From a virus, in IMG/VR virus record IMGVR_UViG_3300025383_001098: a stretch of 64,000 nt of DNA; one strand, given 5' to 3'. A program made the translations under genes and the position numbers. This document shows positions 3 to 18,907 of the stretch, in pieces (position 1 is the stretch's first letter; each line of letters starts with the position of its first letter). The notes under the pieces were generated by a model. That model was not told where the DNA came from and did not search any database. It saw only the letters and a program-made list of their open reading frames with translations.

Positions 3-1037
3 TCTGACTGGAAGGCATATCGCCAAGGCTGTATGTTCCTTGAAGGTTTGGGCATACCATATAGACTAACTGTTAATCTTGACGAATATCTATCCACTCC
101 GGCCGACATTAAATTGGCCATTTCTAACAGTAGATTTGGTAAATTTTTTAGTACAATACACTACCAAGAATTTGTTAATACTGTAAACAATATCGCCGCC
201 CAAAGTGATGCTGTTGTTTTAATCGAAAGCGAACTGCATCAAGAATCTTGTTTTTATTCACGGTGTAGATCAAATGTTCATTGGGTTATTCCCGGTATTG
301 TAAATACCAAACTTGACAATCAATTTTTCAGCGGCGCCTGGTTAGAAAGAACCAGAGACTTGTACAGACAACTGCCCGACAAATTAAGTCAACTCGATCC
401 TTTGTCTGTTAAACCAAAATACTTTGATGCTTTATTGGGAATGGTAAAACCGCATAGAACCTTTGTTTTTAATTCTGTTGGCGAACATAGACTCGCAGAC
501 AAAATTATAGAGACTTATAGTGCAGCAAAACAAGATTTTTTGTACGAATCTGGCACGGTTCGTGCTGATAATAACCCCGATACTACACAGAATATTGTCT
601 ACGAAGGCATAGACACAACCATAAGCCAGGTTATTCCCATTGGTATCTATAACCAAACAGCCTATACCATTGTAACCGAAACTGACACGGATAATGAATT
701 TAGTTTTTTTACCGAAAAAATAGCCAAACCATTAATAGCACGTAGGCTATTTGTAGTATTTTCGGGACAGCATTATCTACAAAATTTACGCAGTTTAGGT
801 TTTAAAACATTTGATGGTATTATCGATGAAACCTATGACACTATTGAAAATGCGGAACATCGTTTTATATCTGCTTTTCAACAGGTAAAACGATTGTGTG
901 AAATGAACCAGTCTGAAGTACTTGCCCAAATCAACGAAATAGTAAATCACAATCATCAGATGATTATGAACGGCGAGTGGGGCAATATGGTACGACAGTA
1001 TCCTGCTGATGTTGTCAAAAACTTGACAAATAAATAA
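3..1037 (+). CDS. GT-B (GT10-like) glycosyltransferase-like protein, paralogue 1; probably 5'-truncated by the window edge
   Basis: Frame is open from position 3. C-terminal motif ET..FFTEKIAKP...RRLF....GFKTFDGIIDETYD is shared with the ORFs at 16436 and 25023. Confidence 0.55.
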   Translation, partial: SDWKAYRQGCMFLEGLGIPYRLTVNLDEYLSTPADIKLAISNSRFGKFFSTIHYQEFVNTVNNIAAQSDAVVLIESELHQESCFYSRCRSNVHWVIPGIVNTKLDNQFFSGAWLERTRDLYRQLPDKLSQLDPLSVKPKYFDALLGMVKPHRTFVFNSVGEHRLADKIIETYSAAKQDFLYESGTVRADNNPDTTQNIVYEGIDTTISQVIPIGIYNQTAYTIVTETDTDNEFSFFTEKIAKPLIARRLFVVFSGQHYLQNLRSLGFKTFDGIIDETYDTIENAEHRFISAFQQVKRLCEMNQSEVLAQINEIVNHNHQMIMNGEWGNMVRQYPADVVKNLTNK

Positions 1038-1051
1038 AAACCCATTATAAT
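1023..1051 (+). promoter_or_regulatory. sigma70-type promoter
   Basis: TTGACA-17nt-TATAAT just upstream of ATG 1058. Confidence 0.7.
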
Positions 1052-1591: not shown

Positions 1592-1701
1592 CTCTAAGAG
1601 AAAACACACACTTAAATTTCTTTCGGATCCTGTTAAATACTAATAGGAGCTGGAATCTACACGATTCTGCTACCAATAATAATAATTAAAAAAGGTAGAA
1701 G

Positions 1702-2184
1702 ATGCGTTGTTTCAACAAGATTATTCTAATCATAATCGCCGGGTGGGCAAGTAGTACCTACGCCACTCCGATAAACGACTTTCAATTTAAAAGCCCAAGT
1801 TTAAACGGATCTGGATATGGCGCTTTCCAACTTGGCTTGGAAAACGAGCAATATACACGTCAGCAAGCCGTTGCGGCACAACTCAAAGCCGATGCTGTAG
1901 CAGCAGCTGCGGCAGCACAAAACACTCCCTTACAACAATTTCTAACTAACTTAGAGTCGCGTATCTACGCACAAATATCTCAAAACGTAGCTACAAGTAT
2001 GTTCAGTACCCCGGGACAAGTTCAGCCCGGTAGCATTGCCTTTGGCGCTGGAAATATAACTTGGGGACAGATTATCATGCCCGGCGGAGGCCAGGGAATA
2101 CAATTACACGTGTTTGATGGTATGAATATGACTACTATCAACGTGCCAATGGGCCAATTTACACCAGGCGGGGGCGGGCAATAA
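1702..2184 (+). CDS. csgF: CsgF-like curli assembly protein
   Basis: Signal peptide; FQFKSPSLNG resembles the CsgF F.F.NP.FGG N-terminus; LQQFLTNLESRIYAQIS helix; translationally coupled to csgG. Confidence 0.75.
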   Translation: MRCFNKIILIIIAGWASSTYATPINDFQFKSPSLNGSGYGAFQLGLENEQYTRQQAVAAQLKADAVAAAAAAQNTPLQQFLTNLESRIYAQISQNVATSMFSTPGQVQPGSIAFGAGNITWGQIIMPGGGQGIQLHVFDGMNMTTINVPMGQFTPGGGGQ

Positions 2185-3488
2185 TGAAACGCTTATTAAT
2201 TTTATCCGCCTTGGTTGCTCTATTGTCTGGTTGTGCTGTTAGCCAGAAAGTGGGCCTCCTGGAAGAAAAACCAAAACTAATGAAACAGGAAATGGTCAAA
2301 GAACTTGATTCTGTTCCTCCTCCTCGTAACGGTAGATTAACTGTGGCGGTGTATAGTTTTGCTGATAAAACAGGACAACGTAAAGCAACCCCGGGAGTGG
2401 CAAGTTTTTCAACAGCAGTTACACAAGGTGGTGACGCATTGTTGATACGTGCTTTACAAGATGTTGGACGTGGCACTTGGTTTGACGTAGTTGAGCGCGG
2501 CGGATTAGATAATTTAACCAAAGAACGACTAATCATTACACAGATGCGACAGGCCTACGAAGGCAACAACGCACAAAAATTAATGCCTTTACAATTTGCC
2601 GGTATCTTAATTGAAGGCGGAATCATTGGATATGATTCAGGATTAGAATCTGGTGGTACAGGTTATAACTTCTTGGGCATTGGTCCCACAACACAATACA
2701 GCAAAGATGTAATCACAATCAGCCTACGTGCTGTAAGTGTAAACACAGGTAAGATATTAGCCACAGTAGCAGTTACAAAAACAGTTTATTCTACAGCAGA
2801 TGCTATTGCTATCTTTAAGAGTGTAGATCCAGGCGGAAGTATAAATGATTTAGTTAAACAAATTGGTGCGCCAAACACAGGAAGTCAAAGTTCTGTTGCT
2901 GCCATATTTCAATTTGAATCTGGTCTAACAGTCAACGAAGCAACTACTATTGCACTTAAGGCCGCTGTTGAAAGTAGTGTAGTTGAATTAATTAAAGAAG
3001 GCGAGCGTAAAGGGATATGGGAATATAAGTTTCCAATGACCCCAGACAAATCATGGTGGGATCTCAGCCGAGACGAAACAAAACCAGTGGCGGAAGTTAA
3101 AAAAGAAGAACCAAAAACACAGCCAGTGGTAGAAGTTAAAAAAGAAGAGCCAACAGTTGCACCAATTGGTCTAAAGAAAACAACCTTGGCTGATGCTACC
3201 AGAGTCTACTCTACCAAGTCAAATTTAAATGGGCCAAGTTACGGACCATATTTAATATATCCTAAGGATACAGTAGTACAGGTAGCACCAACAGAGTTTA
3301 ATGATGTTGTAGAAATAACAACCCCTAACGGTAAACGCGGTTATGTTAAATCTGCACAAATTAAAGAAGAAGTAGTTGTGCCAAAAACATCACCTAAATT
3401 GACTACGGAAGCAGTAATTCCGTTGAGTCAATCAAATAAGGCAGATGTTCCGGCAGATGTATCAGCAAAAGAAGGAGTATTAAAATAG
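2184..3488 (+). CDS. csgG: CsgG curli secretion channel lipoprotein with C-terminal PEK linker and SH3b-like domain
   Basis: Lipobox LSGC; VAVYSFADKTGQRK, FSTAVTQG, WFDVVERGGLDNLTKER and EGGIIGYD motifs. Confidence 0.92.
   Translation: MKRLLILSALVALLSGCAVSQKVGLLEEKPKLMKQEMVKELDSVPPPRNGRLTVAVYSFADKTGQRKATPGVASFSTAVTQGGDALLIRALQDVGRGTWFDVVERGGLDNLTKERLIITQMRQAYEGNNAQKLMPLQFAGILIEGGIIGYDSGLESGGTGYNFLGIGPTTQYSKDVITISLRAVSVNTGKILATVAVTKTVYSTADAIAIFKSVDPGGSINDLVKQIGAPNTGSQSSVAAIFQFESGLTVNEATTIALKAAVESSVVELIKEGERKGIWEYKFPMTPDKSWWDLSRDETKPVAEVKKEEPKTQPVVEVKKEEPTVAPIGLKKTTLADATRVYSTKSNLNGPSYGPYLIYPKDTVVQVAPTEFNDVVEITTPNGKRGYVKSAQIKEEVVVPKTSPKLTTEAVIPLSQSNKADVPADVSAKEGVLK
3083..3152 (+). repeat. Tandem intragenic repeat (PVAEVKKEEP / PVVEVKKEEP) in the CsgG linker
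   Basis: ccagtggcggaagttaaaaaagaagaacca and ccagtggtagaagttaaaaaagaagagcca. Confidence 0.8.
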
Positions 3489-3551
3489 GAGCAATACCGA
3501 TGGAGTAGTAGGAGCCATAGGACAAGGCCATAGGCCAAAGGAAAAAAGAAA

Positions 3552-4478
3552 ATGAAATATAGACTGGCAAGAATAATAACAATAATGCTTGGTCTTGTGT
3601 GTACAGGTGTTTATGCTGCTGATAACAGCATTTACATTAATCAAACAGGTAGCAATTCGACAATTAACATGACCCAGAATGGTGCGAGTAACGTTGTCGA
3701 GGGCATTCAGACAACCGGCTCGGGCCCAACCACGCCCGCAGTAATTACAGGTAATAATAACACAGTCAACGTAAGTCAAGTTGGTTCTGGCAATACTCTA
3801 CAGTTAGGTGTACAAACTGGTATAGCCAATAGTGGACAAAATACGGGTTCGGGATCAGGTAATAACTTTACCTACAACGTGACCGGTGACAATGCCACAG
3901 CCGTTATTAATAGTAATAATACAGGCACAGCAGGAGCGAGCTTGAGTAATAATGTTACTGTGAACCAAAGCGGTGATAATTCCAACTTGAATGTTAACCT
4001 ATTAGGGTCAAATAATAACTTTACAGCAACAACCAGCGGTGGTGCAAGCAATAGTGTAGTAGCTACTATCAAAGGCACCGGTACTAATGATACTATTAGT
4101 ATGACTGGCGGAGCAAGTAATAGTATGACTTTGAATCAAGGTGTAAACACTAACGTGGTAACAGGTACAAATGTAAACGTATCAAGTGTTGGTAGTAATA
4201 ACACTTATACATTAAACCAAGATGGTGGTACTAATGGTAACTCAATTACCATTGGTGGATATAATGCCACTGGTACAAACGTAAGTGGATCAGCAGTTGG
4301 CAATGGTAATACCTATACCGTGACACAGTCAGGTAGTTATGATAATACCTTGGTACTTGGTGTAACTGGTGGTAGCAATACCTTCGGCATTACACAAACA
4401 GCAACAGGCGGTAATAATGTAACTAACATTCAATCGAATGGTAGTAGCAACTCATGGACAATACACCAAACACGCTAA
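3552..4478 (+). CDS. Curlin-like beta-solenoid secreted protein (CsgA/B-like)
   Basis: Signal peptide; Asn/Gly/Thr/Ser-rich with repeated N-x-hydrophobic-x-hydrophobic-x-Q-x-G-x-x-N units; follows csgG. Confidence 0.75.
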   Translation: MKYRLARIITIMLGLVCTGVYAADNSIYINQTGSNSTINMTQNGASNVVEGIQTTGSGPTTPAVITGNNNTVNVSQVGSGNTLQLGVQTGIANSGQNTGSGSGNNFTYNVTGDNATAVINSNNTGTAGASLSNNVTVNQSGDNSNLNVNLLGSNNNFTATTSGGASNSVVATIKGTGTNDTISMTGGASNSMTLNQGVNTNVVTGTNVNVSSVGSNNTYTLNQDGGTNGNSITIGGYNATGTNVSGSAVGNGNTYTVTQSGSYDNTLVLGVTGGSNTFGITQTATGGNNVTNIQSNGSSNSWTIHQTR

Positions 4479-4479
4479 T

Positions 4480-4650
4480 ATGGATAGACGTTTTTTGGAA
4501 ATAATGTATCAACAGTGGAGTCAGGGCATGACAGACTATGCTCACCGCTGGATAGATTTTGTGGAAATGGCTGCAAAGGTTAATGGAACCACAGCCGATC
4601 AAATAATGAAAGAGTTACAGAAATGCCATTGGTTTATAAAGGGAGACTGA
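4480..4650 (+). CDS. Small hypothetical protein
   Basis: ATG follows the previous stop directly; 56 aa inside the operon. Confidence 0.45.
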   Translation: MDRRFLEIMYQQWSQGMTDYAHRWIDFVEMAAKVNGTTADQIMKELQKCHWFIKGD

Positions 4651-5780
4651 TATGGACGGGACTACTATGCGTACTCTTAGGGAGTATATCCACGAACTCC
4701 GACGCCGCGATCGGGACCATAACGGAACAGGTCAATACCCCTCCTTCGATACAACGGTCGAAGACGACTCTAACTGGGACCAAGGGGACCGGGGTGGAGA
4801 TGCAGGACAGCATCAACACAACAAAGGGTAAGGTTGGTATTGTATTTGCTGATGATACTAAGGTACAGGTAAATGAAAATTCTAAGCTGGTCATTGATGA
4901 GTTCGTATATGATCCAAAAAATAAAGACGCTGGTAAGCTGGCTCTTAACATGGCTTCTGGGACTGTTAGATATGCTTCTGGGGCAATCGCCCACAACAAT
5001 CCTAATAAGGTCGCTATCAATACTCCTACTGCTACTGTGGCTGTTAGAGGCACTGATTTTACTGCCACGGTCGACGAATTAGGCGAATCAACTGTAATTT
5101 TATTACCATCATGTCCACGCAAAGACATGATGCCGGACGAAATAGAACGCCTGTGCAAGACTGGAAAGATAGATGTCATCAACGATGCCGGCACAGTCAC
5201 CCTGGACCAACCATTCCAAGGCACCAAGGTAACAGCACGTAACGTACCTCCAACTCGTCCTGCTGTACTACGCCTAAATGAAGATGGCATCAGCAACATC
5301 TTGATCCTTGCACCTCCCCAGGAAATCAAAAACGCTCTACGCCAACGTGAAGAAGAAAAGCAAATGGCGGTGTCAGCACTCAGCCAAAACTTCCTACAGG
5401 GTGTTGACCTTGGTAGCGTACTTGCTGCACAAAACGCTACCTTTATGAGTAACGCATTACAACGTAACTTCTTAGATCAAGACTTTTTAGCAAACATATT
5501 AACATTATTGAATGAACAGTTGGCACAGGAATTTGGTAACTTATTAGCACCAAAGACCAATGGTATATTGCCAGACTACAAAGCCAGCACTGGTGTGGTA
5601 GCTACAGTTGATCCTATTAATGTTACATTATGTCGAACAGATTCTGGTAATAATACAAGTTGTATTATGACGCCACATGGACAGAATTCAACTGTTACAC
5701 AAACACAAAGCGAAAACGTTGCCATTAAAAATCGTATTAATCAAGGTGGCAACACTATTATAAACATAAAGCAGAACTAA
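4623..5780 (+). CDS. FecR-domain secreted/periplasmic protein with curlin-like C-terminal tail
   Basis: Signal peptide; D.I.T..G...I.FADDT...V.ENS.L.ID and INTPTATVAVRGTDF FecR motifs; ends NRINQGGNTIINIKQN. Confidence 0.85.
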   Translation: MPLVYKGRLIWTGLLCVLLGSISTNSDAAIGTITEQVNTPPSIQRSKTTLTGTKGTGVEMQDSINTTKGKVGIVFADDTKVQVNENSKLVIDEFVYDPKNKDAGKLALNMASGTVRYASGAIAHNNPNKVAINTPTATVAVRGTDFTATVDELGESTVILLPSCPRKDMMPDEIERLCKTGKIDVINDAGTVTLDQPFQGTKVTARNVPPTRPAVLRLNEDGISNILILAPPQEIKNALRQREEEKQMAVSALSQNFLQGVDLGSVLAAQNATFMSNALQRNFLDQDFLANILTLLNEQLAQEFGNLLAPKTNGILPDYKASTGVVATVDPINVTLCRTDSGNNTSCIMTPHGQNSTVTQTQSENVAIKNRINQGGNTIINIKQN

Positions 5781-7255
5781 TGAAACGCATATTAATTATA
5801 TTCTTTCTGCTAATCACAATTGGTCTTGGTGTTCACAGTCAAGACGTAGATGCCAGCGGAGTAGCCGGATGGAACTATACCACCTACTATGGTGGCGGAG
5901 CAAGTCCAAGTATTACCAACAGAACTGTAGATACTACAGGTGTAACCACATCAATCAACTACAACTGGGGCGGCGGATTAGTATTAGATAGTGGTTTATA
6001 TGACGGAGTTATCATACACTTTCAAGGATACTTGCGAGCACCTATCACAGGTACCTATCAATTTGGAGTGGCCAGCGATGATGGCAATCAGCTGACTATC
6101 AACAATACTGTGATAACAGCCTGTTGGTGCGAACAAGGTACTACATTTAGATCGGGCAGTATCTATCTCACAGCCGGACAAATAGTACCAGCGGATATTT
6201 GGTATTATGAAAACGGTGGAGGTGCCGCTGTACAGTTTTATTGGTATACCAATGGATCGTGGCAAATAGTACCTACATCAATGATGGCCACGTCAGCCAG
6301 CTACTGGGGACCAAGTATAACTGGCACAGGCACCGGAACAGTTACTACAACAAGTACAAGTGGATCAATCACATCAACATATAGCCAACCAGTGACCATT
6401 ACGTATTACAGTGACGGAACACAAACTACTGCCAACAACGGAGTAGCCACATTGATCAGTACCACTGATACTGGTGGGTCGTTGACTATCACCGCTACAC
6501 AACAACAAATGGTCAACACCGTTGCGTCAAGAATGCCCGGCTTAGGTGATAACAGCATCTACATAACGCAGACTGGTAATAGCGATACAATTAACATTAC
6601 ACAAAAAGGCGCCGGAAATAAAATAGATGGTGCCACAAGTACAGCCAATGGGCCAGGGTACACTACAGCCGCTCCTATTACTGGAGGCGGGAATCACATT
6701 ACGGTGCGGCAACAATCAAACAACAATTTGATTGATCTTGCGGCTTTAGGTGGTAATAATACCCTTAATTTAAATCAAGGTACAGATGCTAACGGAAACT
6801 CAACTGGCTTAGACACCGGCGGACACTATCAATTTGACTATGTTAATGGTGCAGGTAACACGCTGACTGTAGTACAAGAAAACACCGGCCTTAATGCTGG
6901 ACAATTTAGTAGCGTGGCCATAGTTGGAAACTTAAACACCGTAGGGATTACACAAACTGGCACAGCTCGTAATCAGTTGTTTGCTACAGTATCAGGCAAT
7001 AGTAACTCAATAACTACAAGCCAAACAGGAACCAGTGCAGGTTATATTAACATTAATGCAACTGGTAATGGTAACTCTGCGGTAGTGAATCAATCAAACA
7101 CTGGAGCCAGTGGCACTAATAATGCTTCGATAACATTAATCAATAATGGATCTCCGGCCAGTGTAAATTTAACACAAACTGGTGGACAGAATTATTCAGT
7201 AACACAATCATGCGCCACTGCCTGTGGAACTGTAACAGTAAGACAAGGAAATTAA
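5780..7255 (+). CDS. PA14 domain plus curlin-like repeat protein
   Basis: PA14 motifs INYNWG, GYL.AP.TGTY.F...SDDG, YYENGGGA; C-terminal half has Q-x-G-x-x-N repeats. Confidence 0.8.
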   Translation: MKRILIIFFLLITIGLGVHSQDVDASGVAGWNYTTYYGGGASPSITNRTVDTTGVTTSINYNWGGGLVLDSGLYDGVIIHFQGYLRAPITGTYQFGVASDDGNQLTINNTVITACWCEQGTTFRSGSIYLTAGQIVPADIWYYENGGGAAVQFYWYTNGSWQIVPTSMMATSASYWGPSITGTGTGTVTTTSTSGSITSTYSQPVTITYYSDGTQTTANNGVATLISTTDTGGSLTITATQQQMVNTVASRMPGLGDNSIYITQTGNSDTINITQKGAGNKIDGATSTANGPGYTTAAPITGGGNHITVRQQSNNNLIDLAALGGNNTLNLNQGTDANGNSTGLDTGGHYQFDYVNGAGNTLTVVQENTGLNAGQFSSVAIVGNLNTVGITQTGTARNQLFATVSGNSNSITTSQTGTSAGYININATGNGNSAVVNQSNTGASGTNNASITLINNGSPASVNLTQTGGQNYSVTQSCATACGTVTVRQGN

Positions 7256-7260
7256 TTAAT

Positions 7261-7449
7261 ATGATATCATTTAAAATGAGTAAATGGGTACGCTTAGATG
7301 AAGCAGATGACATTAGTCTATACGTACAAAAAATTGGTGGCTACTACGAAGTACACAGACATGACATTGAATTCTATGTACCAGTTGAATACAGAGATTT
7401 TATGTTAATTAAATATCCGTTGTTAGACGAGGTGGCTTATGTTTATTAA
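7261..7449 (+). CDS. Hypothetical protein
   Basis: ATG at 7261 after the previous stop; overlaps the next gene. Confidence 0.55.
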   Translation: MISFKMSKWVRLDEADDISLYVQKIGGYYEVHRHDIEFYVPVEYRDFMLIKYPLLDEVAYVY

Positions 7450-7633
7450 ACTATTGGTACAAATTGCTGGCGGACTATTTGGATTCTTTGTTGCCTATCT
7501 AATGTATCGTATTGTCGAACGACCATACGAACGTAGCACAGAGGAAGCTCGAATCAAGTACGAAGCAGAGATGGCAGAAATACGCCGACGGAAAGAACAA
7601 CTGCATCGCAATAAAAAGTCAATTTTTAATTGA
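7439..7633 (+). CDS. Small membrane protein
   Basis: N-terminal TM helix followed by a charged helix. Confidence 0.55.
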   Translation: MFIKLLVQIAGGLFGFFVAYLMYRIVERPYERSTEEARIKYEAEMAEIRRRKEQLHRNKKSIFN

Positions 7634-7687: not shown

Positions 7688-7713
7688 AAAGGACCGAAAG
7701 GTCCTTTTTCTTT
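7688..7713 (+). terminator. Rho-independent terminator
   Basis: aaaggacc-gaaa-ggtccttt plus T tract. Confidence 0.85.
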
Positions 7714-7991: not shown

Positions 7992-8768
7992 ATGGAACGT
8001 ACTTACCGCTCAATTTTTGTATCCGACATACACTTTGGCACCAGAGACTGTAAGGCCGACGAACTCAATAATTTTCTTAAACACAACACTTGTGAGACTC
8101 TTTACTTAGTAGGCGACATCATTGACGCTTGGAAGATTCAACAAAACAAGTGGCGGTGGAAACAGAGCCATACCAATGCTATCAGACGTATATTAGGTCA
8201 CGCCAAACGTGGAACTCGAGTAGTGTATATAGCTGGCAACCATGACGAATTCCTTCGTCCACTGATACCATATGGTATGGGATTTGGTCGCGTGGAAATA
8301 GTAAATCAAACAGAACACACAGGCGTAGATGGTCGGACATACTTAGTTACACACGGAGATTTGTTTGACGGCATTACACGATTAGCACCGTGGCTAAGTT
8401 TCTTAGGTGATAAATTATATGATTTTGTGCTTGATCTTAATAGTCGTTTTAATTGGCTACGACATCGTCTGGGCTTTGGTTATTGGAGTCTGTCTAAGTT
8501 TCTTAAACATAGGGTCAAAAAGGCCGCCGACTTCATGTTCCAGTTCGAACGAAACTTAGCTGCTTATTGTAAGAAGCGTGGGTTTGATGGTGTTATATGT
8601 GGACATATACATCACGCTGAAATCAAAGAAATTGATGGTGTTGCGTATATGAATGACGGAGATTGGGTCGAGTCAATGACAGCCTTAGTTGAACATCATG
8701 ATGGCCGGTGGGAGATAGTAACCTGGACTCGAGCAAATGACCAAGACAATATTAGTAATAACAGATAA
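7992..8768 (+). CDS. plcP: PlcP-type (LpxH-like) metallophosphoesterase / phospholipase C
   Basis: SDIHFG, LVGDIID.W, RVVYIAGNHDEFLR, HGDLFD, CGHIH and YMNDGDWVES; coupled to a GT4 gene as in plcP-agt loci. Confidence 0.75.
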   Translation: MERTYRSIFVSDIHFGTRDCKADELNNFLKHNTCETLYLVGDIIDAWKIQQNKWRWKQSHTNAIRRILGHAKRGTRVVYIAGNHDEFLRPLIPYGMGFGRVEIVNQTEHTGVDGRTYLVTHGDLFDGITRLAPWLSFLGDKLYDFVLDLNSRFNWLRHRLGFGYWSLSKFLKHRVKKAADFMFQFERNLAAYCKKRGFDGVICGHIHHAEIKEIDGVAYMNDGDWVESMTALVEHHDGRWEIVTWTRANDQDNISNNR

Positions 8769-9735
8769 TGTTCCAGACCAAATCAATGGAGTGGTCACAA
8801 CTTTCAAGAACTTGGAAGATTGTGCTCGCAGTGACGGGTATCGTGTTGTTTATTGTGATCCCGGGCAGTTCCCTAATTTTGCTTGCCCTGGCTATCCTGA
8901 AGTTCGCCTCTGTTGGCCGCACGGTATCAGTAAAAAAATTAAAGCGATACAGCCAGATTTTATACACATCGCTACGGAAGGGCCTGTAGGCCTATTTGCA
9001 AGGTGGTGGTGTGAGCGCAATCATATTCCTTATAATACTTCTTATCATACTGATTTCCCCGAGTTCTTAAAGACAATGTATGGGGTACCTAAGTCGTTGA
9101 CCTATTGGTACTTGCGTTGGTTTCATAAGAACAGTCATCGAGTATTAGTTACTACAAAGACCATAGAAGCGGATTTAGCCTCGCACGGTTTTACAAATAT
9201 GGTTATATGGACTCGTGGTGTTCGCAGAGACATAGAGCCCAGCGTTCCTTGGTGCGAAAATCGTTCAAAACCAATGTTACTTAATGTAGGTCGTGTCAGC
9301 GCCGAAAAAGGTCTATCAAATTTAGTAGAATTTGACCCAACCGAATATACCGTGGTTGTTGTAGGTGAAGGTCCATATATGAGTCGTGCCAGAGAGCTAC
9401 TACCTGATGCCAAATTTGTAGGATATAAATCTGGGCAAGAATTGGTAGATTATTACAATCAAGCAGATGTATTTGTTTTCCCCAGCCAAGCAGATACGTT
9501 TGGATTAGTTATTATAGAAGCAATGGCACAGGGTTGTCCTGTAGCAGCATTTCCTGTACAAGGTCCTATAGATATCATAGAACAAGGTGTAAATGGTTAC
9601 ATGGATTGGGATTTGGAATTGGCAGTTAAACAATGTTTGACATTAGATAGAGATCAAGTTAAAATATCAAGTGAGCGTTGGACTTGGTCCGAATGCTGGC
9701 GTATATTTCGAGAAAATTTAGCAGAAATCAAGTAG
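8737..9735 (+). CDS. GT4 glycosyltransferase (Agt-like diacylglycerol glycosyltransferase)
   Basis: TD..PDQINGVV, IHIATEGPVG, SYHTDFPE, VGRVSAEKG and DTFGLVIIEAMAQG motifs. Confidence 0.85.
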   Translation: MTKTILVITDNVPDQINGVVTTFKNLEDCARSDGYRVVYCDPGQFPNFACPGYPEVRLCWPHGISKKIKAIQPDFIHIATEGPVGLFARWWCERNHIPYNTSYHTDFPEFLKTMYGVPKSLTYWYLRWFHKNSHRVLVTTKTIEADLASHGFTNMVIWTRGVRRDIEPSVPWCENRSKPMLLNVGRVSAEKGLSNLVEFDPTEYTVVVVGEGPYMSRARELLPDAKFVGYKSGQELVDYYNQADVFVFPSQADTFGLVIIEAMAQGCPVAAFPVQGPIDIIEQGVNGYMDWDLELAVKQCLTLDRDQVKISSERWTWSECWRIFRENLAEIK

Positions 9736-9998: not shown

Positions 9999-10646
9999 AT
10001 GAAAACCATTGCCTTATTCATAGCCGATCCCAAATGCTCAGTACAAAGTGCAAACGGTATCATGCAAGCACTGGGAAATAATTTCCGTTACAAGATATTC
10101 AGTAAAAATGCCTTAGAGGACAGTTTCTTTGATTCTGTTGATCTAATTGTGGTACCCGGCGGCTTTGGCGATGCTGATAGTTTTGATACCCTGTTCAAAT
10201 ATAATAAAACCCGTGTTAAAGAATTTATAAAAAGTGGTGGCCAGTACCTGGGAATTTGTATGGGTGCGTATTGGGCAGGCCAACATTACTTTGATATATT
10301 AGACCAAGTGGATGTTGTGCAGTACATAACACACCCCAGTACTTGTACACGTAGGCCACACGCTAAAAATATTGCCACTGAGTGGTACGGTGGGCACTAT
10401 CAAGACATGTTCTTTTACGATGGGCCTACCTTTGTCGGGCCAGGCAATTATCGTACTATAGCCACATACGCCACAACTGGGTTGCCCATGGCCATACAGC
10501 AAGGCAACATAGCGTTAATTGGGTGCCATCCCGAAAGCGAGCAATTTTGGTATGACAATTATAGCTGGATGAAAGGCAAATACCATAACGGCCAACATCA
10601 CGAAATATTAAAGGACTTTGTAGAAGAACTCATAATAAATACTTGA
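9999..10646 (+). CDS. BPL_N / class I glutamine amidotransferase-like protein
   Basis: VPGG, YLGICMGAY nucleophile elbow and HPE triad motif. Confidence 0.8.
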   Translation: MKTIALFIADPKCSVQSANGIMQALGNNFRYKIFSKNALEDSFFDSVDLIVVPGGFGDADSFDTLFKYNKTRVKEFIKSGGQYLGICMGAYWAGQHYFDILDQVDVVQYITHPSTCTRRPHAKNIATEWYGGHYQDMFFYDGPTFVGPGNYRTIATYATTGLPMAIQQGNIALIGCHPESEQFWYDNYSWMKGKYHNGQHHEILKDFVEELIINT

Positions 10647-12697
10647 TGTTCAAAAAAATATTAACCAGTCCATGGACGGCATTATTAACATTAGCACTTG
10701 TTCTAAGTATAAGAATTGCAGATCCTACATTTATAGAAAGCGTAAGACTACGTTATTTTGATACTTTAGTAACAAGTCGAGCACCAGAAACAATTGGTGT
10801 AAGTGTAGTAAACATTGATGAAAAAGCCCTGGAAAAATATGGGCAATTCCCTTTTTCAAGAGACATATATGGAAAAATTATTAGCGATTTGTACCGTCGC
10901 AATGCGGGCCTTGTTGTATTTAATATTCTCACTCCTGATCGTGATCGCCTTGGTCGAGATGCGGATTATATAGCCTCACTACGCCAATACCCAACGATCC
11001 TGCCCAGTGTAGGTAGCACACAAACTCGTAACACGCCGAGAGCACCGGGATCAGTAGTAATTGGTCCATACGGCTTAGATACATTTGTAACATACCCTGG
11101 ACTTATTGCCAACATACCCGGTGTTGAATCGGCAGCTGCAGGTGTTGGTATTACTAACACACTTCCTGAAGTTGATGGAGTCGTACGTCGTATGCCGTTG
11201 GTGGTTGCCTATAATGGCAAACTATATCCAAGCCTGGCAATGGAAACACTTCGTGTTGCTGGTGCAGACTCAACTGTACAGATCAAGGTAAATGAGAATG
11301 GCGTTGAGAAAATGCGTATTCCCAAGTTTGGTCCTGTTACTACAGATAGTTTATCACGAATCTGGATTGACTGGTCATTGGTTCCAGAACATTATAGTTT
11401 AACTGATTTACCTCAAGATTTTGATGGTGATATAGTTATTGTTGGAGTATCAGCGCAGGGACTTGCTAATCCTGTTGCTACAAGTCGAGGCGAAATATTG
11501 CCACAAGATTTACAAGCAAGTGTACTGGGTACTGTAATTGCCAATCGAGATCGACCTGTTATTACCAGACCTGATTGGGCCGAAGGCGGAGAAGTAATTC
11601 TGTTAGCTGTTATTGGTGTTCTATTAATCTTTTTGTCAAGGTGGACTTATGTTGGACTTCTTAGTGCAGTTGTTATTATTGGTGGTAGTATTCCCCTTTC
11701 TAATTATTTGTATTCGGCTAATGCTTGGCTTGTCGACATTACTGGTTTGGTTGGTGGGCTTGTTCTTGTTGCTCTCCATGTTTACGGGGTCAAATTTGTA
11801 AGTGAGTTCTTACAAAAGCAAGCAATTAAGAAACAGTTTGCTGGCTATTGCAGTAAAGAAGTAGTAGAGATGCTACAAAAAGATCCAGACCTAATCAAGC
11901 GTGGTGTACGTAAAGACGTGTCAGTTATGTTCTCAGACTTGCGTGGGTTTACACCTATTGGTGAACACTATGGTGATGATGTTGCTGGCTTAGGCAAGTA
12001 CATGAACGGCTACATGGATGCTATCAGTCAACCTATGTTAGACAACAAAGGTATGATTATTAAGTATGTAGGTGACGCATCGATGCACATACACGGTGCT
12101 CCTATTGAAGACCCTAACCATGCTCATACTATCGTTAAAGTTGGTTTAGAGATGTTAGATGCGGTAGACGAGTATACCAAGATTATGGAAGCACAGGGCC
12201 TGCCTCCTGCCGCAATGGGTTGGGGCTGTAACTCAGGTATTGGCTTTATTGGTGAGATGGGGTCAACTGACCGTCACAGCTATGACATCTTAGGCGACAT
12301 GGTAAGCACAGCCGCACGTTTAGAAGCTCGTTGTAAGGCTTATGGTGTGCTATGTATCATCGGTGCTGAAACTTACAATCGTACTAAAGACGACTTTTTC
12401 TACTTGTTGTTAGATAACTTACAGCCTAAAGGTAAAACTGTAGCTGACTTGATTTATACAGCACTACGTACACGTGGTGTTGATTACACAAAAGATCGAG
12501 AGCAACACGAAGCGATGCATGCCTTATATCGAGCTAAAAAGTTTGATGAAGCAGCCGCAATGTGTAAAAAGTTAGTGGGAAATTTTGGTGGGCAAATGGA
12601 TAAGTATTACAAGATCTGGATCGAACGTTGTGAGTTTATGAAACAACAAGATTTACCAGACAATTGGAATGGCGAATTCATAGCTCACGAAAAATGA
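10646..12697 (+). CDS. CHASE2-domain class III adenylate/guanylate cyclase
   Basis: N-terminal TM; CHASE2 motifs VNIDEKAL..YGQFP..R and DGVVRRMP; 3 TM helices; FSDLRGFT, IKYVGD and GD.V..AARLE. Confidence 0.92.
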   Translation: MFKKILTSPWTALLTLALVLSIRIADPTFIESVRLRYFDTLVTSRAPETIGVSVVNIDEKALEKYGQFPFSRDIYGKIISDLYRRNAGLVVFNILTPDRDRLGRDADYIASLRQYPTILPSVGSTQTRNTPRAPGSVVIGPYGLDTFVTYPGLIANIPGVESAAAGVGITNTLPEVDGVVRRMPLVVAYNGKLYPSLAMETLRVAGADSTVQIKVNENGVEKMRIPKFGPVTTDSLSRIWIDWSLVPEHYSLTDLPQDFDGDIVIVGVSAQGLANPVATSRGEILPQDLQASVLGTVIANRDRPVITRPDWAEGGEVILLAVIGVLLIFLSRWTYVGLLSAVVIIGGSIPLSNYLYSANAWLVDITGLVGGLVLVALHVYGVKFVSEFLQKQAIKKQFAGYCSKEVVEMLQKDPDLIKRGVRKDVSVMFSDLRGFTPIGEHYGDDVAGLGKYMNGYMDAISQPMLDNKGMIIKYVGDASMHIHGAPIEDPNHAHTIVKVGLEMLDAVDEYTKIMEAQGLPPAAMGWGCNSGIGFIGEMGSTDRHSYDILGDMVSTAARLEARCKAYGVLCIIGAETYNRTKDDFFYLLLDNLQPKGKTVADLIYTALRTRGVDYTKDREQHEAMHALYRAKKFDEAAAMCKKLVGNFGGQMDKYYKIWIERCEFMKQQDLPDNWNGEFIAHEK

Positions 12698-12810: not shown

Positions 12811-13524
12811 CTAAACGGTGTCAAGAGCTCGAACCTTTGCAAGCCCGAAGCGTCTAAGTAGTTGTATATACGTCCAACCTAAATCCCACTCCCACGGTTT
12901 CATTGATAATTTAGCACTGGCAGGATCTGCATGGTGATTGTTGTGTAGTTCTTCGCCGCCAATAAAGAATGCCCAGGGTACAATGTTAGTTGAGTAGTCA
13001 TTGGTCTTAGTATTGCGATAACCCCACCAATGCCCGAAGCCGTTAATAACACCTGCGGCCCATAAGGGAATCCAAATCATTTGCCATAGCCAAGGCAACC
13101 AACCCCAAGCCCAGCCAAATATAGCAGAATTAATAAAAAACATTAACACAATGCCTGCAAAGTTAAATGGTGTGTAGATATGCTTTTCAACCCAATCATC
13201 GGGTGTACCTACTCCGTACTGTTCAACCATTTGACGATCTTTAGCGGCATCGGCATAGTAAAATGCACCACCTAAGAATATTTGCCAGATACCGTATACA
13301 CGTGGGCTATGAGGATCACCTTCTCCGTCGGTAAATCTGTGATGTTTACGATGTATAGCCACCCATTGCTTGGTAACCATACCAGTTGTTAACCACAACC
13401 AAAAACGCATAAAGTGTTCTATATAAGGATGAAATGTAACTGAACGATGTGCTTGACTACGATGTAAGTAAAGGGTAACGCAGGCAATGGTGATGTGAGT
13501 CATCACCAGGATGTATATTAACAT
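12811..13524 (-). CDS. Membrane fatty acid (delta-9 acyl-lipid/CoA) desaturase
   Basis: His boxes HRSQAH, HRKHH and ELHNNHH. Confidence 0.9.
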   Translation of the reverse strand: MLIYILVMTHITIACVTLYLHRSQAHRSVTFHPYIEHFMRFWLWLTTGMVTKQWVAIHRKHHRFTDGEGDPHSPRVYGIWQIFLGGAFYYADAAKDRQMVEQYGVGTPDDWVEKHIYTPFNFAGIVLMFFINSAIFGWAWGWLPWLWQMIWIPLWAAGVINGFGHWWGYRNTKTNDYSTNIVPWAFFIGGEELHNNHHADPASAKLSMKPWEWDLGWTYIQLLRRFGLAKVRALDTV

Positions 13525-14880: not shown

Positions 14881-15210
14881 TTAACCAGTGCCGCCTGATG
14901 CTTCTTGTTCGTCTGAAGTTGTAGTTTTGTCTACTTTGTTGATCTGTTTCTCGGCTTCAACACGTTCGTGTTCGATAGTTTTACCACGTAGATGTAAAAC
15001 TGTGTTGACCTTTTGATTTAAACGGATAAGATCGTTATCCAACATGCGGATACGATCAATAAGAGCAATAAGAACTGTATTGGCGTCAGAGATAACTGGC
15101 TTAACTTCTGTCGTGGCCCACTTCCAAACATAGTGGATAATGTAGCCCATGCCAACTGCCATAACAATCGGAAAGCCATACTTATTAACTAACTCTGCTA
15201 TATCGCCCAT
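14881..15210 (-). CDS. Single-TM coiled-coil protein (paralogue of 16116..16397)
   Basis: MGDI...G.P...A...GY TM helix followed by ALxxRxxxxxxDxIRxxxxV. Confidence 0.7.
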   Translation of the reverse strand: MGDIAELVNKYGFPIVMAVGMGYIIHYVWKWATTEVKPVISDANTVLIALIDRIRMLDNDLIRLNQKVNTVLHLRGKTIEHERVEAEKQINKVDKTTTSDEQEASGGTG

Positions 15211-15219
15211 AATTTATCC

Positions 15220-15810
15220 TTAGAACCAAAGCAATACACCTTGGCTACTTAATAGTACGCCAAGACCTGCTACTAAAAAGCTGGACCAGAACAGGCTCAT
15301 GCTAACAGCTAAGATACTTGCTGATAACAATACGATTGCCATTTGATATGCAGTTGACGCATAACCAATCCAAGGGCTACGCTTCTTAGCTTCGTCACGA
15401 TCGTGTTCTAACTTTTGTGCCTTGGCTAATAATTCTTTCTTGCCTTCGCCAGACTTAGGGTCACTTTCGTAACGTTCGATCTTGGCTGTCATTTCTGCTA
15501 CACGAGCCCGGTCGCCAGCTTTCTGTGCATCATACAATGATTGCTCTGCCAGCGATTGCTTAATCGACTTGGCCTGATAGAAACTGTAAACGTCGTTGGC
15601 TTTGATTGTATTGTTTAATACTGTAGAACTTAGAGAGCCGCCGTACCAAGCATTAACCGCAAGTAATAACGCAAACACGTTAATAACCATACCTGCTTTG
15701 TCTTTGATCTTTGCTTCACGTTCTGAACGTGAGCCCACCGGAGGCTTAGGTGCGTCGGGATCTTTTGGTGTTTTATTGATTAAGTTTAACACTGAGTCTA
15801 ATAATGCCAT
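15220..15810 (-). CDS. DUF4337-like membrane protein
   Basis: TM, ND.YSFYQAKSIKQ motif, coiled coil and two C-terminal TMs. Confidence 0.7.
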   Translation of the reverse strand: MALLDSVLNLINKTPKDPDAPKPPVGSRSEREAKIKDKAGMVINVFALLLAVNAWYGGSLSSTVLNNTIKANDVYSFYQAKSIKQSLAEQSLYDAQKAGDRARVAEMTAKIERYESDPKSGEGKKELLAKAQKLEHDRDEAKKRSPWIGYASTAYQMAIVLLSASILAVSMSLFWSSFLVAGLGVLLSSQGVLLWF

Positions 15811-15927: not shown

Positions 15928-16116
15928 TTACTCATTGCCAAATCCTCTTGCAAATTTTTCAATTGGGTCTATTTTTTTAAGTAATCTTGTTCCGCTTTCG
16001 GTAATTACTAATTTAAACATATCCCCTTCTTTCCATCCCAGATTATTAACAGGAAGTTCGTCGTCTAATTTAAGATAGTTAGGGCATAAATCCCACTCGT
16101 AATCTAAATGCAACAT
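15928..16116 (-). CDS. AbrB/MazE-like small protein
   Basis: LGWKEGD.F.L motif. Confidence 0.45.
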   Translation of the reverse strand: MLHLDYEWDLCPNYLKLDDELPVNNLGWKEGDMFKLVITESGTRLLKKIDPIEKFARGFGNE

Positions 16117-16397
16117 TAATCTCTCCTTGCGTCGTTTTTGCCATCGGCACGACTAATACGTTCTACGTCTGGACGTAAACCAAGTGCGTTTGATACAACG
16201 GTATCGATACGGATTACATCATGGTTCATGGTTTTTACACGATTATCAAGTGCTGTGATAATACCGGCCATGCCTTTAATACTGCCCAGCACTCCGCCTA
16301 ATAGTAGTTTAATGGTAAGAAATATAAAGTATCCGCCTGCGAGTGCAGCGGCAACTGGCATACCAAGATCACCAATGATTTTGAAAATATCGCCCAT
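16116..16397 (-). CDS. Single-TM coiled-coil protein (paralogue of 14881..15210)
   Basis: aggag SD; ALDNRVKTMNHDVIRIDTVV. Confidence 0.7.
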   Translation of the reverse strand: MGDIFKIIGDLGMPVAAALAGGYFIFLTIKLLLGGVLGSIKGMAGIITALDNRVKTMNHDVIRIDTVVSNALGLRPDVERISRADGKNDARRD

Positions 16398-16435: not shown

Positions 16436-17683
16436 TTATTGGGCAAGACGCTTTTTTACTTCCTCAAAGTGTGTGGGTGGCAGGTCAACTCGTTGATGAT
16501 GTCTACTGTGATTTCCAGGTATACGGCCGTGGTTAATTCTGTTTAATATACCCTCAAAATTATCAACTAATTCGTTAACAATAAGATCCTTAAATTTGCC
16601 ATAGAAATGTTGATGATTGTATTCTAAAATCTCTTTCATTTCAGAATGCATTTGTTTTAAAGCATCGGGCGACAACTCACATAAGCGTTGAATTTCTGCT
16701 GTAATTTTTTCTATGCGTATATAATGATCTGTTTCTTCGTCGTAACTTTCGTCAATCCACTGATCAAATGTACGAAACCCGTAGCTCTTTAAATAGGCAA
16801 GATTACCCGGAGCCGCCGCAAGTATAAAAGGACGACGTGCAACAATGGGCTTAAAAACTTTTTCAGTTAAATGTAACTTGGGCAAGAAATAAACAGTTTC
16901 AGTAACCACGTGCCAAAGTACGCTGGTTAACTCGTTAATGTCAACATTGGCACTCATTGAACCTGTAGGAGTATCGGTGTCAATTATTAGTGGACCGCTT
17001 AGTTGACTTAATGCTGATGTAATTTTTGCTCTTGCACGATCGTCCAGTGGCGTTGCTGGATCTTCAACAGAATCTTGCCACGTACCTAAATTATCGCTTA
17101 GGAACAGGCTAACCCGCCCATGTTTGATTAAATCTTGATTAATTAGATTGCTGACAAGATGTAAGCGATAGGAACGATATTTTGATATTAAATGATTGTA
17201 ACATATAAATACTTTATCAAATTGATCAAAGACCGTTGGGTTTACATATTGAAAATCTCTATACCAATCTAAAGCTGCAAACCCGTGAAAGAAATAATAC
17301 CAATTATAGTAATTATTTGATCGAATATACTCATCTAATAAGTCAGATTTTTCACTATTAGCCAATATCATAAATGCCCTGGGCCCAGTATAATCATCAA
17401 TAAAGGTAATTAGTTTATTATCTTTAGCAACTGCTTTAGTATACTCATAAAATGGTTCTTGATCAAAGAAATAGCAATGTAGAAGACTTTGTCTTATCAA
17501 TGGTATAGTGTGAAATGCAAATACTTCAGTTGATGAATTTTGTTTACCAACAGGATCGTTTGTATAAATTAATGTACTATCGTAAGTGCCAAAAGGATGA
17601 AATGCTACCGAACTTGCATTAAGAGGTAGCGGATCAATTAAATTATTGTGTATAATGTCGTAAAATCTATCTAAGGAAAACAT
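16436..17683 (-). CDS. GT10-like glycosyltransferase-like protein, paralogue 2
   Basis: VVTET...HLTEKVFKPIVARRPF....GFRTF..IDESYD. Confidence 0.55.
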   Translation of the reverse strand: MFSLDRFYDIIHNNLIDPLPLNASSVAFHPFGTYDSTLIYTNDPVGKQNSSTEVFAFHTIPLIRQSLLHCYFFDQEPFYEYTKAVAKDNKLITFIDDYTGPRAFMILANSEKSDLLDEYIRSNNYYNWYYFFHGFAALDWYRDFQYVNPTVFDQFDKVFICYNHLISKYRSYRLHLVSNLINQDLIKHGRVSLFLSDNLGTWQDSVEDPATPLDDRARAKITSALSQLSGPLIIDTDTPTGSMSANVDINELTSVLWHVVTETVYFLPKLHLTEKVFKPIVARRPFILAAAPGNLAYLKSYGFRTFDQWIDESYDEETDHYIRIEKITAEIQRLCELSPDALKQMHSEMKEILEYNHQHFYGKFKDLIVNELVDNFEGILNRINHGRIPGNHSRHHQRVDLPPTHFEEVKKRLAQ

Positions 17684-17686
17684 CGA

Positions 17687-18907
17687 ATGAACGTAGGCTT
17701 TATTGGAATTGGTAAATTAGGAATGGCTTGTGCTGAAACTATGGCAAGCAAACATAATGTAACTGGTTATGATATTTACCCTAAAACAAGTGACAAGATT
17801 AAAATTGCTACCACTTTAGAAGAAGCTGTAACAGGAAAAGAATTAATTTTTATTGCTGTAGAAACACCACACGATCCCATTTATGGCGGCGAACAACCAA
17901 TTACTCATTTAAAAAATAAAGACTTTGACTATACTGTAGTAAATCAAGTATTAGCAGATGTAAATCAATATGTAAATAAAGACCAACTTGTAGTATTAAT
18001 CTCCACAGTTCTCCCTGGCACTACACGGCGTGAATTGAAGACACACATTACCAACGCTCGTTTCATTTACAATCCTTACCTCATCGCAATGGGATCAGTT
18101 GAATGGGACATGGTTAACCCAGAGATGGTTATCATTGGTACAGAAGATGGTAGCGAAACAGGCGATGCGAAATTGCTGACCGACTTCTATAAAACATTAA
18201 TGGAAAACAATCCACGTTACGTAGTGGGCACGTGGGACGAAGCGGAATGTATTAAAGTATTTTACAACACATTTATTTCAGCAAAGATAGGTCTCGTTAA
18301 TATGATACAGGATGTTGCTGTTCGGCAAGGCAACATCAATGTAGACGTAGTAACCTCAGCATTAGCACAGAGCACAATGCGTATTATGGGACCAAAGTAT
18401 ATGACAGCAGGAATGGGAGATGCAGGGCCATGTCATCCTCGTGATAACATTGCCTTGCGTTACCTTGCAGAAAACTTAGATTTGGGTTATGACATCTTTG
18501 ATACTATCATGAAAGCACGTGAAATTCAAGCAAAGAACATGGCACGTTTTATCTACGACAACAGAGAAGGTATGCCAGTGTATATTCATGGCAAAGCCTA
18601 CAAGCCCGATGTAGCATACTTAGAAGGTAGCTACAGTTTGTTAGTAGGCTACTACCTAAAGGAAATGGGCATTGATCCCGTCTACATTGATCCTTTAACA
18701 GAAGAATCAAATCCAAGGACTATTAAAGGTTGTGTGTTATTGGCACATAATAAAAAAGTTACCTATGGATATGCGGGAGTTAGTGAAACACAAGAATTAT
18801 ATTGTACATTAGAACCTTATAGTATTGTAATAGACCCGTGGAGAACTTACACAACACCTAACCAATATATAAAAGTAATCCATTATGGCAACACGCGAGT
18901 ACAATAA
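17687..18907 (+). CDS. UDP-glucose/GDP-mannose dehydrogenase family protein
   Basis: GIGKLG Rossmann motif, STVLPGT, K...N.F and G.C.P.D catalytic motif. Confidence 0.9.
   Translation: MNVGFIGIGKLGMACAETMASKHNVTGYDIYPKTSDKIKIATTLEEAVTGKELIFIAVETPHDPIYGGEQPITHLKNKDFDYTVVNQVLADVNQYVNKDQLVVLISTVLPGTTRRELKTHITNARFIYNPYLIAMGSVEWDMVNPEMVIIGTEDGSETGDAKLLTDFYKTLMENNPRYVVGTWDEAECIKVFYNTFISAKIGLVNMIQDVAVRQGNINVDVVTSALAQSTMRIMGPKYMTAGMGDAGPCHPRDNIALRYLAENLDLGYDIFDTIMKAREIQAKNMARFIYDNREGMPVYIHGKAYKPDVAYLEGSYSLLVGYYLKEMGIDPVYIDPLTEESNPRTIKGCVLLAHNKKVTYGYAGVSETQELYCTLEPYSIVIDPWRTYTTPNQYIKVIHYGNTRVQ

Follow-up and report, generated by a model that had tools for sequence, protein, structure and literature searches.

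The closest described systems are those of pelagiphages, in which Wittmers et al. 2022 described a viral type VIII secretion system (T8SS) module, CsgF-CsgG-CsgA/B-FecR-CsgA/B-adenylate cyclase, and explicitly identified its fibre genes, in podo- and myo-pelagiphages alike (PMC9599517). The module accounts for ~0.1% of viral proteins in GOV2.0 ocean viromes and is transcribed, being present among metatranscripts (PMC9599517). The cluster was reported by Zaragoza-Solas et al. 2020, with "sibling capture" as their proposal (PMC7029224); superinfection defence, sibling capture and import are all considered by Wittmers et al. 2022 (PMC9599517); and Buchholz et al. 2022 called csgA and csgB missing in Methylophilales phage Melnitz and proposed a lysis pore (PMC9004378). 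Here we analyze a cassette of this kind at 1702-7255 on the plus strand of a 64,000-nt stretch of viral DNA (the window), which is part of a 127-kb, ~35% complete IMG/VR virus contig, IMGVR_UViG_3300025383_001098. Its gene content and protein homologies make it probable that this phage carries a complete curli-type (type VIII) fibre cassette acting in the infected Gram-negative cell.

By tblastn, the same genes occur in Pelagibacter phage HTVC008M (gp014-019) and in Melnitz (gp99-104), where GenBank gives the order CsgF, CsgG, curlin-associated protein, FecR-type protein, second repeat protein and adenylate/guanylate cyclase. The original prediction for this DNA, made from its letters alone, had proposed a phage curli-like operon with its own curlin substrates, and this is borne out: profile and fold both relate the two repeat proteins to CsgA. 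It also stated, correctly, that csgF and csgG had been published from aquatic myophages; its view that their substrate was unclear had already been superseded for pelagiphages (PMC9599517). Because Wittmers et al. 2022 settled the substrates and GenBank labels the HTVC008M and Melnitz genes curlin, the claimed novelty fails: the cassette of this phage is a further example of an already published system. It extends that system to a large-genome phage lineage beyond the described pelagiphages, and its true CsgA-homologous subunits contradict the statement that csgA and csgB are missing in Melnitz (PMC9004378). The known picture is not fundamentally changed by these findings.

Curlin subunits and secretion pore

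Because the 127-kb record encodes tail-fibre, structural, ribonucleotide reductase and ligase families, we take it to be a real phage, probably a very large one; in a nucleotide search of phage records, a collection that may leave out this record itself, no deposited phage matched it. A six-frame list of open reading frames (ORFs) reproduced the predicted gene order. The operon opens with csgF (1702-2184, 160 aa) and csgG (2184-3488, 434 aa), followed by an all-repeat curlin rich in N, T, G and S (3552-4478, 308 aa), which is the candidate major fibre subunit, a small optional ORF (4480-4650), an exported FecR-domain protein (4623-5780, 385 aa) and a lectin-headed PA14/GLEYA::curlin fusion (5780-7255, 491 aa). 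The genes are as tightly coupled as had been claimed: csgF/csgG and FecR/PA14 overlap by 1 nt each, and the biggest gap is 63 nt. CsgF, CsgG, FecR and PA14/GLEYA all exceed their curated Pfam cut-offs. Export signals on the large proteins were likewise confirmed by inspection, with n, h and c regions ending in an A-x-A-like site in CsgF, the 308-aa curlin, the FecR protein and the PA14 protein (Sec signals), and a lipobox in CsgG, LLSGC, that is identical in the aligned E. coli CsgG.

By sequence profile and predicted fold, both repeat proteins are true curlins, homologous to CsgA. For the 308-aa protein there are over 160 relatives at ~50% identity, most of which carry the Curlin_rpt family (PF07012) and several of which lie on 200-370 kb contigs labelled uncultured Caudovirales phage. 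A profile built from 44 of these relatives matches CsgA of P. korlensis (8c50, E 7.9e-26) and CsgA of E. coli (8enq, E 5.8e-6). AlphaFold2, run on the same 44-relative alignment, gave a model with a pLDDT of 80 and 22 strands of 6-8 residues separated by 4-residue turns, forming ~11 strand-arc-strand rungs, all strand-turn-strand. The beta-solenoid fold that the original prediction had singled out for checking is therefore returned as a two-sheet strand-arc-strand model whose best structural match is CsgA 8c50: in an exhaustive VIA-align search, 8c50_A came first (Z 24, 238 residues aligned, rmsd 8.6), ahead of generic beta-helices (runner-up Z 16.8). Foldseek against the PDB returned weak generic beta-helix matches that were not significant, with CsgA at rank 44. 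The curlin fold consists of stacked strand-arc-strand repeats, which unrelated solenoids may resemble (Sleutel et al., PMC10192328), and for this reason we weight the sequence profile above the fold.

The two curlins are also related to each other. BLASTP aligns them at 33% identity over 186 aa (E 4e-14), with residues 24-47 of the 308-aa protein against residues 257-280 of the 491-aa protein; both segments open with DNSIYI(N/T)QTG, the shared motif given in the original prediction. This first-repeat motif is the best-conserved part of the family, D24, N25, Y28, Q31 and G33 being invariant in 44 sequences. Exactly two proteins in the record match the curlin family hidden Markov model (HMM), the 491-aa protein with E 6e-21, and both repeat regions show periodicities of 11 and 23 residues (z ~4 against shuffles).

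The 491-aa protein comprises a signal peptide, a PA14/GLEYA domain (Pfam E 1.7e-14), a T/S-rich linker, curlin repeats at residues 257-491 and a C-terminal C-x3-C. Among relatives the head of this second curlin is swappable: PA14 heads are found in the present phage, HTVC008M gp018 and roughly half of the 290 relatives from databases, F5/8 type C (discoidin) heads occur on the second curlin of two surveyed loci (L022 and L023), and two or more other types exist. The C-terminus carries Cys-x(n)-Cys and then a final strand in 23 of 26 headed curlins vs 18 of 90 plain ones. Wittmers et al. 2022 use neither the term "PA14" nor the term "lectin" (PMC9599517), and the modular lectin-like heads of the second curlin are a detail not found in the cited cassette literature. 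As read from the sequence, the modular lectin-curlin fusion points to glycan binding as a candidate function. One locus has a protein of the Gcw_chp family (PF09694, E 1e-21) inserted between FecR and the second curlin (L011:11168-11842).

The pore genes are equally recognizable. CsgG matches PF03783 with 142 bits against a cut-off of 20.8 (E 2.1e-41) and aligns with E. coli CsgG across the whole core (E 1.9e-42). It consists of a lipoprotein pore core, residues 1-285, and a lineage-specific tail of ~150 aa that is missing in many relatives and is a detail not found in the cited cassette literature. Weak leads (SH3_2, E 0.16; ESM Atlas, 0.90) make an SH3-like domain possible for this tail. CsgF matches PF10614 with 38.9 bits against a cut-off of 25.8 (E 1.2e-9). 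The CsgF of this phage bears a conserved F-x-F-K-S-P-x-x-N-G-x-G motif at its N-terminus. Phage CsgFs have in common an N-terminal F-x-F-K-S-P-x-F-x-G-x-G motif, and a profile of 15 of them aligns with residues 3-53 of E. coli CsgF (6l7a_J, E 0.0057), the N-terminal plug region that inserts in the CsgG barrel; phmmer with the single CsgF against the PDB found nothing.

Conservation of the cassette, the FecR protein and the CHASE2 cyclase

Curli cassettes are common in phages, as judged by their published share of ocean virome proteins and by a CsgG profile scan of IMG/VR, which gave at least 590 confirmed viral contigs encoding a CsgG relative. A first survey of synteny, proposed with the original prediction, found 23 viral loci with identical gene order, and the counts that follow cover 53 further viral loci with enough flank. 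In these, csgF precedes csgG in 52/53; csgG is followed by a curlin in 52/53, by two curlins in 39/53 and by FecR in 53/53; and the order csgF-csgG-curlin-FecR-(second curlin) is kept in 52/53. A CHASE2 cyclase lies within 7 kb of the cassette in 47/53 loci. The proposed operon bounds held for the genes at 1702-7255 and left out this conserved partner, which the window encodes at 10643-12697 (plus strand, 684 aa). Contigs L028-L033, from metagenome-assembled genomes (MAGs), carry the whole cassette; we rejected them as evidence of a bacterial version, because they have further phage genes in common with this record.

The cyclase combines CHASE2 (Pfam E 1e-35) with a class III nucleotidyl cyclase domain (Guanylate_cyc, E 5e-14) and is 44% identical to the Melnitz cyclase that adjoins the Melnitz curli genes. 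Here three genes, for a metallophosphoesterase, a GT4 glycosyltransferase and a GATase-like protein, separate it from the operon, which ends 3.4 kb upstream; this displaced position is also a detail not found in the cited cassette literature. The metallophosphoesterase (258 aa) and the glycosyltransferase (332 aa) overlap, at 7992-9735, and the pair recurs in L006 and L018.

After the FecR domain (PF04773, E 1.1e-10) come a helical middle part and then a conserved tail of beta-strands that ends I-x-I-K-Q-N. Phage FecR proteins are uniform in length, ~345-400 aa, and all have a strand-turn-strand tail ending I-x-I-x-Q-N/K; ~62 phage homologues keep this tail, which 30 bacterial ones lack. Like the CsgG tail, this cassette-specific FecR tail is a detail not found in the cited cassette literature. 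Among 16,201 FecR-domain matches, the cassette type accounts, at E <=1e-30, for 171 clusters at 50% identity. An ESM Atlas search with the C-terminal half of the protein found no usable match.

Of 72 loci with a bacterial homologue of the FecR protein, 29 have CHASE2 proteins nearby and none has csgG/csgF alongside, and in Burkholderia an operon of LysM-FecR and a CHASE2 kinase is linked to the control of biofilm (PMC5192318). Because such bacterial FecR-CHASE2 pairs exist without curli genes, the phage cassette resembles the union of a curli module with a FecR-CHASE2 sensor pair. Candidatus Pelagibacter genomes (L035, L058-L064, L068) encode FecR-domain proteins, 30-35% identical over the domain, a few kb from CHASE2 proteins. 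Since cellular SAR11 genomes encode FecR near CHASE2, the clade that the published phages infect possesses relatives of the sensor half, and none of the curli half. The cassettes would provide the infected cell with a surface structure which known hosts lack.

Proposed function and competing explanations

We propose that Sec would export five proteins to the periplasm and that the unfolded curlins would cross the outer membrane via CsgG, capped by the N-terminal peptide of CsgF. The 308-aa subunits would then stack into a two-sheet beta-solenoid amyloid fibre, and the lectin-headed subunit could join it via the same first-repeat face (DNSIYIxQTG), making the fibre sticky for glycans. More speculatively, the FecR protein might make cyclic-nucleotide synthesis depend on the condition of the fibre or envelope, given that FecR pairs with CHASE2 sensors in bacteria. 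The likely pay-off would be a changed surface of the infected cell, giving adhesion and aggregation, or shielding. The aggregation, grazing resistance and superinfection block suggested in the original prediction repeat the published sibling-capture and superinfection hypotheses (PMC7029224, PMC9599517).

Several points weigh against a fibre cassette. With Pfam Curlin_rpt (PF07012) alone, the two curlins score 14.8 and 14.0 bits against a cut-off of 20.7, and the fold alone is weak evidence because numerous beta-solenoids with no relation to curlins also match that fold with high scores (PMC10192328). At the CsgG constriction, F56 is kept and the other two of the three residues differ from E. 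coli (Y51>T, N55>S). The 150-aa PA14 domain, with its C-x-C pair, would need unfolded passage through CsgG. CsgE (PF10627) and CsgC (PF10610) had been called unrecognizable, and indeed neither was found in the 127-kb fragment at E up to 1; many curli operons outside the Gammaproteobacteria, and the published phage modules, likewise lack CsgE and CsgC/CsgH (PMC9599517). We tried the FecR tail as a curlin repeat, and because the first-repeat HMM scores it barely above shuffles (<=5.7 bits vs up to 3.6), we claim a resemblance only; an AlphaFold2 model of the FecR protein from 11 sequences was unusable (pLDDT 48). Fibres have been experimentally shown for no phage cassette, and clumping of Melnitz-infected cells was not seen by Buchholz et al. 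(PMC9004378).

The altered constriction and the missing CsgE, the periplasmic gate, would suit the proposal for Melnitz that CsgG/CsgF is a gated pore timing lysis, with the repeat proteins as accessories (Buchholz et al. 2022, PMC9004378). That proposal presumed that there was no csgA or csgB, whereas curlins with signal peptides, homologous to CsgA, accompany the pore in 52/53 loci, and the plug motif of CsgF is conserved. Moreover, given the structure of the envelope, a pore spanning the outer membrane cannot depolarise the inner membrane. We regard a lysis pore as very improbable. The absence of CsgE from the record would also fit an ungated pore that admits cofactors or nutrients such as iron-siderophores and vitamins, with FecR as an iron-related regulator, as suggested in PMC7029224 and PMC9599517. 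Such import would leave two conserved curlins, lectin heads and CsgF unexplained, and by inspection a signal peptide is present on the FecR protein and an anti-sigma N-terminal domain is not; we give this idea scant credence. Rather than polymerizing, the curlin-like proteins might be exported and remain single beta-solenoids, a non-amyloid surface coat masking receptors. Beta-solenoids are common non-polymerising scaffolds (PMC10192328), and the region is rich in envelope-modifying genes (GT4, desaturase, UDP-glucose dehydrogenase). Against this stand the sequence homology to CsgA, which polymerises, and the invariant positions of the first-repeat motif, which is the best-conserved part of the family and is common to both curlins, as expected of a stacking interface. 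A coat of single solenoids therefore seems improbable.

The constancy of the regulatory genes bears on a different possibility, namely that the cassette mainly senses, the lectin-tipped fibre and FecR serving as an antenna for the CHASE2 cyclase and cAMP or cGMP tuning infection (e.g. timing or lysis). FecR and the cyclase are as constant as the curlins across the phage loci (53/53 and 47/53), FecR-CHASE2 pairs occur in bacteria without curli genes (PMC5192318), and phage FecR has its cassette-specific C-terminal strand tail. The curlin likeness of that tail is, however, not significant, physical contact between FecR and CHASE2 is reported for no system in the cited literature, and the cyclase lies here outside the operon, 3.4 kb away behind other genes. 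A cassette devoted mainly to sensing is on balance unlikely. There is a slim chance that it works as a contact sensor, in which exchangeable lectin heads would bind glycans of neighbours or particles and FecR would dock via its curlin-like C-terminal strands and signal to the CHASE2 cyclase, so that the phage could gauge host density or attachment and alter its infection programme to suit. The reading that we prefer is that of an exported curlin fibre built by the infected cell.

Neighbouring genes, promoters and comparison with known systems

The small ORF between the first curlin and FecR more likely starts at ATG 4480, one base past the curlin stop, than as listed (4438-4650), which makes it a cytoplasmic protein of 56 aa. 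It is 36-93% identical in some relatives, is cleanly absent from L005, L008 and L010, and is without a Pfam family. Two further small ORFs follow the operon at 7210-7633 on the plus strand (79 aa and 64 aa, the second with a transmembrane (TM) helix); they accompany it in close relatives (L004-L009 and L013), and neither has a Pfam family. On the minus strand, 8-10 kb away, lie two small paralogues of 93-109 aa with a single TM helix. Homologues of the first (14881-15210), a single-TM/coiled-coil protein, stand directly upstream of csgF in L028-L033, and the second (16116-16397) has the same csgF association elsewhere. They probably correspond to the "HK"/histidine kinase of Wittmers et al. 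2022. As kinases they were rejected, having no kinase domain or other Pfam domain and being too short for one; a YvrJ- or holin-like identity is likewise unsupported, as no Pfam family was found.

The window also encodes a fatty-acid desaturase (12811-13524, minus strand), a DUF4337 membrane protein (15220-15810, minus strand) and a UDP-glucose dehydrogenase (17687-18907, plus strand), which together with several glycosyltransferase-like genes form an envelope-modifying island. Two proteins without Pfam families, at 33-1037 (plus strand) and 16436-17683 (minus strand), have by eye a similar C-terminal …GF(K/R)TFD…IDE(T/S)YD… and are possibly paralogous sugar-modifying enzymes.

Upstream of csgF, by ~65 nt, lies a TAAATA box (1634-1639, plus strand), a candidate phage promoter element that had been noted from the start. 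It is present, and 13 of 19 related loci keep it upstream of csgF in the form TAAATAC(T/A)A; at the same time, the window shows no enrichment of TAAATA (50 sites vs 84.5 expected), and the box differs from the full T4 TATAAATA box. Among T4-like markers, Melnitz gp32, gp33 and gp59 had no tblastn match in the record, and a Gp23 search gave a signal nowhere, its controls being likewise blank. Because T4 late-transcription genes were not found in the fragment, a T4-type late promoter reading of TAAATA stays unproven. The gene directly upstream of csgF encodes an Rv2179c-like 3'-5' exonuclease (1058-1591) and is preceded by a sigma-70-type consensus promoter, TTGACA-17-TATAAT, with 12/12 matches (1023-1051, plus strand). 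Early transcription from this predicted promoter may read through into the operon. Between it and csgF there is no strong terminator, the sole match being a weak 6-bp stem (1357-1373) inside the exonuclease gene; the first strong one past the operon is an intrinsic-terminator-like hairpin on the plus strand (7688-7707), with an 8-bp stem and then a T run.

Set beside known systems, the cassette resembles bacterial FecR(COG4254)-CHASE2 pairs (Burkholderia "BiofilmReg", PMC5192318) in that an exported FecR is encoded beside a CHASE2 sensor. Those pairs differ in being without csgG/csgF neighbours, in having LysM-FecR with kinase outputs or other lengths, and in being without the phage tail. With bacterial curli (E. 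coli csgBAC-csgDEFG; alphaproteobacterial csg) the cassette shares the CsgG lipoprotein pore, the N-terminal CsgF motif, curlin repeats of ~22-23 residues and the strand-arc-strand solenoid. Unlike bacterial curli, it is without CsgE, CsgC and CsgD, has ~11 rungs per curlin instead of 5, bears a lectin-like head and C-terminal Cys pair on the second curlin, includes FecR and the CHASE2 cyclase, and has two of three constriction residues changed.

The closest comparison is with the T8SS of pelagiphages, from which the present phage differs in several ways. It is far larger (a 127-kb fragment at ~35% completeness), its CsgG has the ~150-aa extra tail, and an optional 56-aa ORF stands between curlin and FecR. 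The cyclase, which directly follows the cassette in pelagiphages, is here 3.4 kb off behind three genes, and in place of the one or two "HK" membrane proteins directly upstream of csgF there is an exonuclease gene. The likenesses are those of a common plan: both have the order csgF-csgG-curlin-FecR-curlin and a CHASE2 cyclase, and csgE, csgC and csgD are absent in both. CsgG, FecR and the cyclase of HTVC008M and Melnitz are 37-41% identical to the proteins of this phage, and HTVC008M gp018 carries PA14 and curlin repeats, as does the 491-aa protein here.

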